Shown here piece by piece: positions 50,502 to 56,574 of a stretch of DNA of 64,000 bases. Both the position numbers and the translations under genes were made by a program. How positions within the stretch are numbered: position 1 is the first letter of the stretch; every line of letters starts with the position of its first letter. This stretch comes from an uncultured archaeon (GTDB lineage Archaea > Asgardarchaeota > Lokiarchaeia > Sigyniarchaeales > SOKP01): assembly GCA_964508365.1 (NCBI GenBank), contig CAZDTP010000003.1:27559-91558 (forward strand). The letters run 5' to 3'. The notes below the pieces were generated by a model, which worked only from the letters and a program-made list of their open reading frames with translations, searched no databases and was not told the DNA's origin.

Positions 50502-50663
50502 ATGTTTGAAGAAATCTTAGATGAAATGAACGAAAAGGTAGAAGATCATCCAGAACTCAAGAGGAATTATACGGAAACACCTTTTGAAAAATCAATTGAT
50601 ATTATTCTGGATCAGATTAATTTAGATATAGTTAAAATCTTAAGATATAACAGAATTGAATAG
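50502..50663 (+). CDS. hypothetical acidic small protein (53 aa, below the ORF-track cutoff)
   Basis: My manual translation gives MFEEILDEMNEKVEDHPELKRNYTETPFEKSIDIILDQINLDIVKILRYNRIE. No motif. Confidence 0.2.
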   Translation: MFEEILDEMNEKVEDHPELKRNYTETPFEKSIDIILDQINLDIVKILRYNRIE

Positions 50664-50674
50664 TGAAATTTAAT

Positions 50675-50836
50675 ATGAAGTTAGTATATCAAGAATTTAT
50701 ATGTCCTGAATGTGGCCAAGTTAGATGGCTAAAAGTTGAAAATATGTGCGTAGATTGTAAAGATAAGCTGTTTTTAGATGAAGTGTCTCAATCTAGAAAA
50801 GAGCAACATGTTTTTAACGAGCAAATATGTTTTTAA
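50675..50836 (+). CDS. small zinc-ribbon protein (53 aa, below the ORF-track cutoff)
   Basis: My manual translation gives MKLVYQEFICPECGQVRWLKVENMCVDCKDKLF..., with CPEC-x11-CVDC. Confidence 0.3.
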   Translation: MKLVYQEFICPECGQVRWLKVENMCVDCKDKLFLDEVSQSRKEQHVFNEQICF

Positions 50837-52257: not shown

Positions 52258-53031
52258 TTAATCGAAAATCTTTTTATAACACTCGCAACAAGGAATTCCA
52301 AGACTAATTTTATTGGAGTAATCAACTCTTATTTCCTCAATATTATTAACTAATCTGATTAGGCTCTCTTTAAATTTCAATACTTCGGGATCCAAAATAT
52401 TTTTATATATATTTTTTAATCCAACATTGTTATGAATTCTCTTTTTGCAAATGGGGCATCGATCAAAGAAATTTTTTAACCTTATCAATTGCTCGTCTTC
52501 TTTATTAATAGTTAAACGAAAGTGAGATAAAGTGTGTCCTGGATGTAGTGTTATAATTAATTTCTTAAATATTTCCTCTAAATTTTCTTCTAGACTTAAT
52601 AGCGAGGTGTGTTCGATATATACGAGGTCTTCCTCAGCTATCAAGTTATTAATCGCTTCTTCTGATACTTCCCTATTTGCTAAATTGGCTTTGATCCCAA
52701 TTAAAATAATTGGAATATCATTCACATTCTCCTTAAAAAGAGTTATCCACCTATTTAAGTCGGAGAAAGTTTCTTTATTAGATATGTTAAAGCATAACAA
52801 TCCTGTACAGGCACCTCGACAGAATACAGGAAAAAGAAACCTAAATCTTTTGCTATCTTTCAAATCCCAAATAATAAACTTATAGTTATCTTCCTCATTA
52901 ACTTGACATTCCACAGATTTAAACGAAACACCAATCGGGCTTCCGTTATTTCCATTATTATCAATAACGGTATTTTTACCCGAGTTAAATGATCCTCCTA
53001 AAACCAATTTTAACTTATAAGATTTGGGCAT
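52258..53031 (-). CDS. Rab/Ras-like small-GTPase-fold protein with degenerate G motifs and C-terminal zinc ribbon
   Basis: It aligns by eye with Rab along the whole G domain: KLVLGGSFNSGKNT / IIWDLKDSKRFRFL / ILIGIKANL versus GDSGVGKS / WDTAGQERF / NKxD. The G1 Ser/Thr, G3 Gly and G4 NKxD are all substituted. The C-terminus has CPICKK...CCEC. Confidence 0.65.
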   Translation of the reverse strand: MPKSYKLKLVLGGSFNSGKNTVIDNNGNNGSPIGVSFKSVECQVNEEDNYKFIIWDLKDSKRFRFLFPVFCRGACTGLLCFNISNKETFSDLNRWITLFKENVNDIPIILIGIKANLANREVSEEAINNLIAEEDLVYIEHTSLLSLEENLEEIFKKLIITLHPGHTLSHFRLTINKEDEQLIRLKNFFDRCPICKKRIHNNVGLKNIYKNILDPEVLKFKESLIRLVNNIEEIRVDYSNKISLGIPCCECYKKIFD

Positions 53032-53112
53032 TTTAACTATTCTCGTTAATTACTCGAGGACATATTATAAGGCTTCATGTTCTAATAAAAATCCACTCTA
53101 AAAAATATTACT

Positions 53113-53505
53113 CTATTTAATTTCAAATAAATTCCCATAAAAATCTTTTAAAAATAAGTAGAAACTATCACTATTTTTTCTAGGTACTTGAATCACTTCA
53201 AAATTTAATTCTTTCGCTCTTTCGATTAATTTATTACGATCCTCAACGATTAAGCAAGTATGGGTAAATTTATCTTGTGCTTGATTTTTATCGTCAGTTA
53301 TAAACGCTTCCACGCCCAAATCTTCATTTTCATATCTAAGAACCCTCTGTTCCTTCTTAATATTAAAAAATTTTTCCATTAAGTCATCAGATACTACAAA
53401 GGATCTAACTTTTTTCATATTTAAGAGATTAATGAAAAATTCATCTGCCTTTTCTTCGCTATTTGAGCTTACTGCAATATGCTCTATTTTCAAAATTAAT
53501 ATCAC
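53113..53505 (-). CDS. VOC/glyoxalase-family protein
   Basis: IEHIAVSSNSEEKADEFFINLLNM ... THTCLIVEDRNKLIERAKE ... FLKDFYGNLFEI follows the paired beta-alpha-beta-beta-beta VOC pattern. Confidence 0.55.
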   Translation of the reverse strand: MILILKIEHIAVSSNSEEKADEFFINLLNMKKVRSFVVSDDLMEKFFNIKKEQRVLRYENEDLGVEAFITDDKNQAQDKFTHTCLIVEDRNKLIERAKELNFEVIQVPRKNSDSFYLFLKDFYGNLFEIK

Positions 53506-53631: not shown

Positions 53632-54495
53632 ATGACTAATGTAACTTCAGAAATGTTTTTGAATAAACTATTTAGTGTTGTATACAAACTATATACTATT
53701 GCAAAAACACAATCCGAACGGCTTAAAAAGGAATGGGATGAAGATTTCGCCTTATTAACTGAAAAACCTCATTTAGTTCGCTACATTCGAGCTGAAAAAG
53801 AACAATTTCTGACCAATATAGATTATCGTATTAAAATTCTAAACACTATAAAGTTATCGTTTGAGGATGGATTCTATTCTATAAAATCCATATTAAATGC
53901 TCTATATCATTCGTATTTTAAGGATTCAGAAATCTTTACACAGAATTTTTTTGGAGAGGATCAAAATAAACTCAAGTACTTAGTGGCTAAAGAAATTTTG
54001 GGAAATTTAATTCAGTACAATCAACTTGATCATGAAACTGTACCAGTAAAATATAATATCCTAGCAAGAAATTACTTATTAATTAAATTTAAAGAACAGA
54101 GCGCTAAAGATATCAATGAGAACCTAAAAAAAATTAAAATAGCACTTAAACTCCCAGAATTAAAAAAAATCTTGAATGAGATAATTGCTGAAGGATTTTT
54201 AAAAAAAAAAAAGGTGGGCAAAATTATGTATTACAGTTTAAAACAGGAATTAGAATTGTCGGAAAAAGGTAAAGCAACTTACAATCAAACTATACGACCA
54301 TTAGTAGATTGGCCAACTTTGTTTTATCGTAGCTATTATAATATAAGAGAGTTAAATGTTACAGTGGATGACGATTCTAAGCATCCAGAGTTCCTCAATA
54401 CAGTTTTACAAAAAGCAGCTACACAAGGTTATACTGCTTGCCACTATGTCTTTAAAAATTTAGTAAAATATTACGAGAAATTAAAAGATGAGTAG
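53632..54495 (+). CDS. hypothetical protein (possible internal wHTH)
   Basis: 287-aa ORF. LKKILNEIIAEGFLKKKKVGKIMYYSLK looks like a winged-helix wing. Otherwise unrecognised. Confidence 0.35.
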   Translation: MTNVTSEMFLNKLFSVVYKLYTIAKTQSERLKKEWDEDFALLTEKPHLVRYIRAEKEQFLTNIDYRIKILNTIKLSFEDGFYSIKSILNALYHSYFKDSEIFTQNFFGEDQNKLKYLVAKEILGNLIQYNQLDHETVPVKYNILARNYLLIKFKEQSAKDINENLKKIKIALKLPELKKILNEIIAEGFLKKKKVGKIMYYSLKQELELSEKGKATYNQTIRPLVDWPTLFYRSYYNIRELNVTVDDDSKHPEFLNTVLQKAATQGYTACHYVFKNLVKYYEKLKDE

Positions 54496-55608: not shown

Positions 55609-56574
55609 ATGTCAATTGATTTTGTATTTGTAGCTGCCATTTCATTAATTTTTGGTACTTTGTTCTTCATAATTGATTTTTATCAACGTACCCATCCTAA
55701 AATCAATATTTCCTTAATTGCAGGTATCTCTATCTCTTATTTCTTCTTAGTACTCCTTCCAGAAATTGCTGAAAATATTCCCGTATTCCCATTTGAACTC
55801 ACAATTTTTGAGTATTTATTTGTGTTAATTGGTTTTATATTTGTTCACACTTCTGAAAAATTAATTTTACAAAAGGTAGAGTCTAAGTCGCAAAAGAGAA
55901 TGCGTAAATTAATTGAAAAAGAAAGAATTTTGGAAAGTGTTGAAGAAAATATCGAGAACATATTAACTAAAGAATTAGAAAAAGAGGATTTAGACGATAT
56001 AGCTCTGAAGGATTTAGCCCAAACATTAGTTGATTTAAAAAAAAAAGGTGGAGAGTTCATAGAGAAAATAAATCGCTATAAGGCTAAGATTCAAACACAC
56101 ATCAACGAAGATTTAAGCAATCTTCGTTTTTTCACTAATTTTTCATATCATCTTCTTGTAGGGATTATTGTTGTAGGGTTATTAACTATTGATTTAGTTG
56201 GAGGGATATTATTTTTCCTTTTCGCCTGGTTTAGAGCAGTTATAACAAACAGATCAGAAAGCCATATCGTATTTACTGATCTGGAAATCTATGAAACATA
56301 CGATATTGAAGATAATTTGGCCAGAAAATATGTTCTAGCTCTTTCAAATTTTTTAGGAGTTTTATTTGGATTATTTTTAGATTTAATAGGTTTTGAATAC
56401 TCTGAGTTATTCTATGTTTTTTATTCTTTTATATCAGGAGTTATTCTGTATACTATTGTAAGGGAAGTTCTACCCGAAAAAGAAAAAGGAAATCCATTAT
56501 TTTTTCTCATTGGATTCTTTGGATTTACACTTGTAATCTTTATTATAAATATCTTCACAAGTATAATTTATTAA
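55609..56574 (+). CDS. polytopic membrane protein with central charged coiled-coil loop
   Basis: Three N-terminal and four to five C-terminal hydrophobic helices flank a ~90-aa K/E-rich segment. No transporter signature recognised. Confidence 0.45.
   Translation: MSIDFVFVAAISLIFGTLFFIIDFYQRTHPKINISLIAGISISYFFLVLLPEIAENIPVFPFELTIFEYLFVLIGFIFVHTSEKLILQKVESKSQKRMRKLIEKERILESVEENIENILTKELEKEDLDDIALKDLAQTLVDLKKKGGEFIEKINRYKAKIQTHINEDLSNLRFFTNFSYHLLVGIIVVGLLTIDLVGGILFFLFAWFRAVITNRSESHIVFTDLEIYETYDIEDNLARKYVLALSNFLGVLFGLFLDLIGFEYSELFYVFYSFISGVILYTIVREVLPEKEKGNPLFFLIGFFGFTLVIFIINIFTSIIY

Follow-up and report, generated by a model that had tools for sequence, protein, structure and literature searches.

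A Lokiarchaeial Rab-like protein with eroded GTPase motifs and a C-terminal cysteine module

The stretch of DNA considered here, called the window, is 64,000 nucleotides from an uncultured archaeon of the Sigyniarchaeales (class Lokiarchaeia; GenBank assembly GCA_964508365.1, contig CAZDTP010000003.1, positions 27,559 to 91,558 of the forward strand). One gene on its reverse strand encodes a protein of 257 residues with a Rab-like G domain, altered nucleotide-binding motifs, and a cysteine-rich C-terminal module. The best explanation, held at a probability of only a little over one-half (about 0.55), is that this is a non-switching Rab-like pseudoGTPase fused to an autonomous Cys5-His module, most likely with a single structural zinc bound. 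A non-switching scaffold had been proposed in a preliminary description made from the sequence alone, and it is still the best reading; all five G-motif tests turned out negative. Sequence and predicted structure agree in giving a conserved G fold without catalytic motifs, which is what defines a pseudoGTPase, and by that definition the protein would be classed as one.

The gene and its G domain are placed as follows:

52258..53031, reverse strand: whole open reading frame, 257 amino acids plus stop (basis: 93 full-length homologues)
52540..53031, reverse strand: Rab-like G domain, residues 1–164 (basis: Pfam Ras, PDB sequence matches, AlphaFold2 model, Foldseek)

A Rab-Like Fold

The reading frame begins MPKSYKLKL, and all orthologues share this start. 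A word-indexed search returned 93 intact homologues, nearly all of 255–277 residues and full length, from genomes that their submitters labeled Loki-, Thor-, Hermod-, or Hodarchaeota. These intact homologues, with about 37 invariant columns, rule out a decaying pseudogene. Under an exhaustive search the family reaches down to about 28% identity, where the same C-terminal module is found after longer linkers. The window genome has 66 Ras-family matches, one of which is the window protein.

Residues 1–164 are a bona fide Ras/Rab fold. The match to the Pfam Ras family (PF00071; E 1.6e-17) scores 64 bits against a cut-off of 21.6 and is therefore far beyond chance, and the Roc family is matched at E 6e-11. 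The closest solved structures by sequence are Ypt32/Rab11, Rab22, Rab5, and Rab4, at E 3e-16 and weaker over residues 5–163; the HMMER alignment to Ypt32/Rab11 (E 3e-16, same residues) sets the register of all motifs discussed below. A full-length AlphaFold2 model built on 31 homologues reached a predicted local distance difference test score (pLDDT) of 81 and a predicted template modeling score (pTM) of 0.66. Within it the G domain has the full Rab order of strands and helices, with six strands and helices alpha2 to alpha5, while alpha1 is cut to about three residues and residues 26–30 are disordered (pLDDT below 50). Foldseek searches with this model returned Ypt32, Rab4, Rab11, and Rab8 at E of about 1e-13 and template modeling (TM) scores, by target, of 0.70–0.78. 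The colinearity with Rab and Ras domains that had been claimed from the letters alone is borne out by Pfam, by the Ypt32/Rab11 alignment, and by Foldseek.

The Rab family motifs were judged by eye on the Ypt32 alignment. RabF1 is present as IGVSF, RabF2 is broken in its DTAGQE half, and RabF3 to RabF5 resemble those of Rab proteins (RFRFLF, FCRGA, LCFNIS). The surface made of the interswitch and switch II (PIGVSF, KFxxWDLKD, RFRFLFPxFCRGA) is almost invariant, as is the Cys module. Three further cysteines of the G domain, C42 in beta2, C71 at the RabF4 Tyr position, and C80 in beta4, show little or no variation across the orthologue group and are absent from the paralogue groups. The G domain is acidic, with an isoelectric point (pI) of 5.3 against about 9 for the Cys module.

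Motifs That Are Lost and Motifs That Survive

The five nucleotide-binding regions lie within the G domain:

52972..52998, reverse strand: P-loop, residues 12–20, GGSFNSGKN; Walker GxxxxGK (13–19) intact, Ser/Thr Mg ligand replaced by Asn (basis: Ypt32 alignment, motif table)
52921..52968, reverse strand: shortened alpha1/switch I, residues 22–37; Pro32 at the position of the switch-I Thr, RabF1-like IGVSF kept (basis: Ypt32 alignment, motif table, pLDDT)
52849..52869, reverse strand: G3 and start of switch II, residues 55–61, WDLKDSK; Asp kept, Gly60 and Gln61 (Ras numbering) lost (basis: alignment, motif table)
52681..52701, reverse strand: G4, residues 111–117, IGIKANL; Asn replaced by Ile/Thr, Asp by Asn (basis: alignment, motif table)
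52597..52611, reverse strand: G5, residues 141–145, HTSLL; Ser kept, Ala replaced by Leu (basis: alignment, motif table)

Set against Ypt32, G1 changes from GDSGVGKS to GGSFNSGKN, switch I from TIGVEF to PIGVSF, G3 from WDTAGQE to WDLKDSK, G4 from GNKSDL to GIKANL, and G5 from ETSAL to HTSLL. The alpha1/switch I region also carries a six-residue deletion relative to Rab in the HMMER alignment. The window protein departs from consensus at every one of GxxxxGK[ST], the switch-I Thr, DxxG(Q), [NT]KxD, and SA[KL]. Each substitution listed in the preliminary description for G1, G3, G4, and G5 falls in register on Ypt32. Its claim that all nucleotide-binding motifs have degenerated holds insofar as every G motif is off consensus at a key residue, and is too strong insofar as the pocket still has the Walker GxxxxGK core, the Asp of G3, the Lys of G4, and the Ser of G5.

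The motifs could in principle have been shifted along the chain, a possibility that the same description had named as one that would undo its claim; alignment and a pattern scan both speak against it. The scan found only DNNG (residues 24–27) and NKED (176–179). Of 35 close orthologues, 2 have the former; the latter lies beyond helix alpha5, outside the G fold, and is KKED or unconserved in the sister groups. Since these matches are either unconserved or outside the fold, the motifs are lost, not displaced.

A Stepwise Erosion

Motif states were tabulated over 90 orthologues in three nested groups of 35, 26, and 29 sequences. The first, at 74% identity or more, is the window clade, and the two outer, or sister, groups stand at 39–60% identity. 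Common to all three are a Pro (occasionally Ser) at the position of the switch-I Thr, WDLKD in place of DxxGQ, a short switch I, and S-[IL] in G5. Both outer groups retain GxxxxGK[ST] and TKxD; GK-N (35/35) and xKxN (33/35) are confined to the window clade. The Asn at position 20 is thus found in all 35 sequences of that clade, with Thr or Ser at the same position in the sister groups, and Asn116 in 33 of them.

Some positions have not moved. The P-loop Lys is kept in 35/35, 25/26, and 29/29 sequences of the three groups, with the Walker Gly13 invariant, and the G3 Asp (D59) in 35/35, 26/26, and 25/29. Elsewhere in the window clade the G3 Gly has become Asp in all 35 sequences, position 32 is Pro in 31, Ser in 3, and Thr in 1, the G4 Lys is relaxed (24 Lys, 7 Arg, 3 Asn, and one Gln, making 11/35 non-Lys), and the P-loop Gly18 is missing in 2 of 35.

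As the alignment has it, the erosion of the G motifs is stepwise, with group-wide losses first and then GK-N and xKxN in the window clade. The family ancestor probably still bound nucleotide, because GK[ST] and a TKxD of the Rho type persist in the sister orthologues. For the two later changes, well-known Ras mutants serve as a guide. Ras S17N, the classical dominant-negative mutation, lowers GTP affinity and Mg binding, and Ras D119N moves specificity to xanthine nucleotides; the Ras switch senses the gamma-phosphate through Thr35 and Gly60. In the window clade the S17N-like and D119N-like states are natural and fixed, and by analogy they would weaken binding without necessarily abolishing it.

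The Cysteine Module

The C-terminal part of the protein contains two sets of candidate metal ligands:

52261..52539, reverse strand: linker and Cys module, residues 165–257 (basis: AlphaFold2 models, alignment of 57 copies)
52432..52458, reverse strand: first ligand set, residues 192–200, CPICKKRIH (basis: alignment of 57 copies)
52279..52299, reverse strand: second ligand set, residues 245–251, GIPCCEC, at the N terminus of the last helix (basis: alignment, domain model)

The module is about 90 residues long and has the pattern CPxC..H...GIPCCxC. Among 57 diverse copies, C192, P193, C195, G245, P247, C248, C249, and C251 are invariant and H200 is conserved in more than 90%. Both cysteine motifs had been picked out in the preliminary description, with 54 residues between them; they are there, CPIC at 192–195 and CCEC at 248–251, and the distance between C195 and C248 is 52 residues.

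In the AlphaFold2 model the order is a strand (171–174), a helix, the CPIC knuckle, three helices, GIPCCEC, and a terminal helix. CPxC sits between two beta bridges and forms a knuckle in both the full-length and the domain-only model (domain pLDDT 80), and CCxC starts the last helix (249–256) after the three helices, so placed that C248 and C251 make a CxxC in the first helical turn. The predicted arrangement is treble-clef-like with a helical insert of about 50 residues. The placement of both cysteine pairs in the predicted secondary structure fits a treble-clef-like Zn(Cys)4 site, while fold searches matched nothing. Strand 171–174, which includes the invariant F171, may pack on the G domain, because it forms in the full-length model and not in the domain-only model.

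Searches for relatives of the module were negative at every level. A Pfam scan of the 57 copies gave nothing significant, with no zinc-ribbon family matching more than 1 of 57. The module profile against PDB sequences gave best values of E 0.02–0.06, to PF0385 and the Rad50 hook, which are not significant. With the module model, Foldseek against the PDB returned only matches with E above 3, VIA-align against 48,161 chains reached a best Z of 4.8, within noise, and a shape search of the ESM Atlas found the family itself only; an Atlas feature search gave no usable match. A predicted homodimer of the module with zinc scored 0.28 against a mark of 0.42, which speaks neither for nor against such a dimer. 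The domain is new and unclassified.

Zinc ribbons have two CxxC knuckles, each in a beta-hairpin, and a three-stranded sheet. The name zinc ribbon, first given to this tail, does not suit it: the second cysteine pair is at a helix N terminus after the helical insert of about 50 residues, and no zinc-ribbon family or fold was matched. Nor is there anything in favor of the nucleic-acid binding suggested with that name, beyond a mildly basic module (pI of about 9). Treble-clef and zinc-knuckle Zn(Cys)4 sites are the closer likeness, sharing with the predicted structure a CPxC knuckle in a beta-hairpin flanked by helices and a second CxxC at a helix N terminus; the window module differs from them in the three-helix insert between its ligand pairs and in the missing fold match. 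With the Rad50 zinc hook, a CPxC between helices, there is only the weak, nonsignificant profile likeness given above.

Distribution and Architectures of the Module

The module was sought in 301 genomes of the phylum. It occurs in 62 of 68 genomes of a single family of the Genome Taxonomy Database (GTDB) and in none of the 233 genomes of the 29 other families sampled, so the Asgard-wide setting in which the protein was first described is too broad. The question raised with that description, whether the fusion is conserved, has a clear answer, since the 93 full-length homologues carry the Cys-rich tail.

All module-bearing genomes of the sample belong to this one GTDB family, among them close relatives that submitters labeled Hod-, Hermod-, or Thorarchaeota (loci L002 and L003, GCA_048887165.1 and GCA_048886165.1, and L013, a congener of the window genome). 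For these metagenome-assembled genomes (MAGs), the phylum labels at NCBI look unreliable.

The module is autonomous, being found in standalone (about 150 residues), tandem, and G-domain-fused forms. Standalone proteins (L006 270–731, forward; L007 69–521, reverse; L009 259–750, forward) are made up of an acidic N terminus, a helix with the pattern LRxEMLxELxxLRxLI, and the module. Long-linker GTPase paralogues (P0180, P0197) also have this helix ahead of their module, and in the module-bearing paralogues the low-complexity linker between G domain and module runs to 60–200 residues. One genus (g2) has the short form only, in frames of 147–177 residues, and the one examined is a standalone protein. 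The window genome has a single Cys module and lacks the standalone form.

A protein of about 485 residues without a Pfam match (L008 70–1527, forward) ends in two modules in tandem, and similar frames of 430–499 residues are present in at least six genomes of the family. In the first tandem copy of L008 the His and the middle Cys are gone (CPIC...CDDC), leaving the four cysteines of CxxC...CxxC, and these are therefore taken as the core metal site. When the module profile was searched against the longer proteins of a 5.8-billion-protein set, 74 matches were obtained. Their partners were only Ras/Roc domains or regions without a Pfam match, and the named sources were all Loki- or Promethearchaeia-type MAGs.

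Phylogeny of the G Domains

A tree was made of the G domains of 60 module-bearing proteins and the 41 canonical paralogues of the window genome. With a loose cut of the alignment, the module-bearing proteins form one side of a branch, at 100 in the Shimodaira–Hasegawa-like approximate likelihood ratio test (SH-aLRT). With a strict cut, which removes everything within 28 residues of CPxC, a free quick search placed one canonical paralogue inside the module-bearing clade; the tree constrained to monophyly has a log likelihood 56 units above that free quick-search tree, which makes a single origin of the fusion the best tree obtained, and is not rejected (approximately unbiased test, p 0.98). GxxxxGK[ST] is retained in 38 of 60 module-bearing proteins versus 41 of 41 canonical paralogues, and DxxG in 10 of 60 versus 37 of 41.

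Near the edge of the module-bearing clade branch P0180, P0197, and P0126, which have near-canonical G1, DxxG, and xKxD. The window clade lies deepest in the nesting (starred sets of 5, 8, and 16 rows), so its extra losses would be derived. The sequences are compatible with what would be the simplest history: the fusion took place once, and the switch then decayed repeatedly in separate lineages while the module stayed invariant. Because the tree is unrooted and has long branches, the direction of these changes is only inferred.

The window genome also encodes larger relatives. Several of its 66 Ras-family matches lie within open frames of 520–585 residues (G000 C18:18740–19222, C26:10473–15788, and C115:1522–1947) and are therefore multidomain small-GTPase proteins; three of these form a tight paralogue cluster in the G-domain tree.

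How the Protein May Work, and What Else It May Be

The residues for sensing and hydrolyzing the GTP gamma-phosphate (switch-I Thr, G3 Gly, catalytic Gln) are gone from the whole orthologue group, and in the window clade the Mg-ligand Ser/Thr and the guanine-specifying Asp have each become Asn as well. The G domain would no longer cycle between GTP and GDP and would act as a conformationally fixed platform for protein binding. Its binding surface would be the one that Rab proteins use for effectors, the interswitch and switch II, presumably held in one conformation. The tethered basic module (pI of about 9) would add a second interaction or a localization function and would be stabilized by Zn(Cys)4, the zinc probably being held by C192 and C195 of the beta-hairpin knuckle and C248 and C251 of the first helix turn, with C249 and H200 as spare conserved ligands. 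Given the invariant P-loop Lys, a nucleotide or phosphate might still occupy the pocket weakly and without Mg, as a structural cofactor; such occupancy would not drive a switch.

Several observations count against this reading. The invariant P-loop Gly and Lys, and Asn residues at 20 and 116 that are fixed rather than scattered, show, on sequence evidence, continued selection on the pocket, which a retained ligand would fit better than a dead site. The metal is deduced from conservation and predicted secondary structure only, and the predicted arrangement of the two domains is moderately confident (pTM 0.66). The neighborhood gives no functional hint, the whole 10-kb block including alaS being syntenic.

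The observations on the pocket lead to the strongest alternative, itself unlikely, that the protein is an atypical nucleotide binder. The pocket would have been remodeled toward changed specificity or Mg-free binding (GDP-like, a xanthine nucleotide, or ATP), with occupancy in place of hydrolysis regulating the protein, as in constitutively loaded GTPases of the Rnd/RhoH type or fast-exchanging mutants. TKxD is the G4 form of Rho-family GTPases, and the D-to-N change in G4 is the classical change to xanthine specificity. An invariant Walker GxxxxGK, N20 (35/35) and N116 (33/35) fixed and not drifting, the retained G3 Asp and G5 Ser, and GK[ST] and TKxD in the sister groups are all as this explanation would have them. 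It has to contend, however, with seven pocket elements missing together (the Ser/Thr Mg ligand, switch-I Thr, sensor Gly, catalytic Gln, G4 Asn, G4 Asp, and G5 Ala) and with the six-residue deletion, which removes the stretch of switch I lying over the base in Rab proteins. The relaxed G4 Lys (11/35), the loss of Gly18 (2/35), and a model in which alpha1 is nearly absent and 26–30 disordered point the same way.

A bolder extension of the pseudoGTPase reading is improbable as it stands. A Lokiarchaeial lineage would have invented a metal- or redox-sensing Cys5-His domain and fused it once to a Rab-like GTPase, the switch would then have decayed stepwise, and the module would now control or localize the effector surface. 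If true, this would amount to a natural test of exchanging the input of a small-GTPase switch, and no pseudoGTPase clade would have been described in archaea before it.

Five invariant cysteines and a conserved His exceed the needs of one zinc, and the G domain has three more conserved cysteines (C42, C71, C80). CPxC is a common redox motif. The module could on these grounds be redox active (a CPxC thiol-disulfide center, CcmH- or thioredoxin-like) or a five-Cys Fe–S center, and the protein would then be a regulator responding to redox state or metal, with the module in the role that GTP once had as input. CcmH, with its helical CxxC, came up on top three times (Pfam on one member, E 0.028; Foldseek rank 1, E 3.4; Atlas, TM 0.40), but all of these resemblances are below significance. 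A knuckle CxxC paired with a CxxC at a helix N terminus is textbook geometry for structural Zn(Cys)4, and the degenerate tandem copy retains exactly these four cysteines, which leaves the redox or Fe–S explanation quite improbable.

A Rab-style prenylation signal in the CCxC, serving as a membrane anchor, would suit a Rab-like protein, given that eukaryotic Rab proteins end in CC, CXC, or CCXX, and would be notable since archaeal Rab-like proteins are reported to be without such cysteines (PMC4915359, PMC10933270), but it is scarcely credible and is rejected: in 172 modules CCxC is never terminal, with at least five residues after it (median seven), it is internal in the tandem-module proteins, it covaries with the invariant CPxC about 52 residues upstream in a confidently predicted fold, and searches of Asgard databases found no homologues of REP or RabGGTase (Tran et al., PMC10933270).

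Relation to Known GTPases and PseudoGTPases

In published analyses (Surkont & Pereira-Leal 2016, PMC4915359; Tran et al. 2024, PMC10933270), archaeal and Asgard Rab-like proteins carry canonical G1–G5 motifs, bind both GDP and GTP, and are reported to end without any extension or cysteines at the C terminus. The window protein resembles them (for example, Thor-Rab, PDB 7EZB) in its Ras/Rab fold, its RabF1-like IGVxF, and a switch II with RabF3/4-like RFRxxF and xxRGA. Unlike them, it lacks the switch and catalytic residues and has the Cys module of about 90 residues.

Classes of pseudoGTPases have been laid out, with Rnd, CENP-M, and the pG domains of p190RhoGAP as precedents (PMC10211241). 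The window protein is like the eukaryotic examples (CENP-M, p190RhoGAP pG1/pG2, Rnd1/3) in having a G fold under purifying selection despite lost catalytic motifs, presumably as a binding platform. Its family differs from them in its separate origin, from inside a Rab-like clade of the Lokiarchaeia. The Walker Gly and Lys, which it keeps, set it apart from CENP-M and the pG domains, and the additional loss of the switch-I Thr and the G3 Gly sets it apart from Rnd.

The RGK GTPases (Rad, Gem, Rem) offer another comparison. They have DxWE for DxxG in G3 and no switch-I Thr, with G1 and G4 intact, and their extensions bind calmodulin and 14-3-3 and have no Cys module. The sister orthologues, with GK[ST], WDLKD, and TKxD, are RGK-like as RGK proteins are generally known. 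Homology with RGK proteins is at the superfamily level only, and the window clade has in addition lost the G1 Ser/Thr and the G4 Asp.

In the literature searched on archaeal pseudoGTPases and Asgard GTPases, no description of the window clade or the Cys module was found. Small GTPases of Asgard archaea draw attention as forerunners of the membrane-traffic switches of eukaryotes, and here one Lokiarchaeial family has expanded a Rab-like lineage with a dedicated Cys-rich domain. The decay of the GTPase motifs is in a readable order with the sister groups as intermediates, and these proteins are ready-made natural mutants for biochemistry. The bearing on eukaryogenesis is limited because the module is confined to one family.

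The Gene Neighborhood

The nearest upstream gene lies on the same strand:

53113..53505, reverse strand: VOC/glyoxalase-fold protein, 130 amino acids, upstream same-strand neighbor (basis: kept next to orthologues)

Loci of orthologues at 47–59% identity share a syntenic block of AsnC-type regulators, a ZIP-like membrane protein, DTD2, a 287-residue protein, the VOC/glyoxalase gene, and then the window gene; the last two converge on NUDIX, metallophosphatase, two small open reading frames, and alaS. Synteny within one family covers the block in its entirety, and the VOC gene next door is therefore no sign of a functional link. Neither a roadblock nor a longin partner lies beside the window gene, and at the loci of a paralogue and of a standalone module the neighbors are unrelated.

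Reading by eye between the two reverse-strand genes (53063–53105, reverse), there is a T6 run 8 nucleotides past the VOC stop and a TTATAATA box about 32 nucleotides before the ATG of the window gene. The run and the TTATAATA box resemble a terminator and a promoter, respectively, and suggest that the window gene has its own promoter. Divergent to the VOC gene is the 287-residue protein (53632–54495, forward), which has no Pfam match and a C-terminal half that looks winged-helix-like by eye. It has the same position in all orthologous loci examined (L001 3537–4400, L002 3490–4353, L004 3506–4372).

The ZIP-like gene conserved in the block (55609–56574, forward) encodes a 321-residue membrane protein with a weak match to ZIP zinc transporters (E 0.001, below the cut-off), and its presence near a putative zinc protein is probably coincidental. 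After alaS come the two tiny open reading frames (50502–50663 and 50663–50836, forward), the second encoding a CxxC...CxxC protein. They are probably real genes, because counterparts of 52–55 residues are found at the same place in orthologous loci (L001 7177–7338 and 7353–7511; L005 7348–7515).

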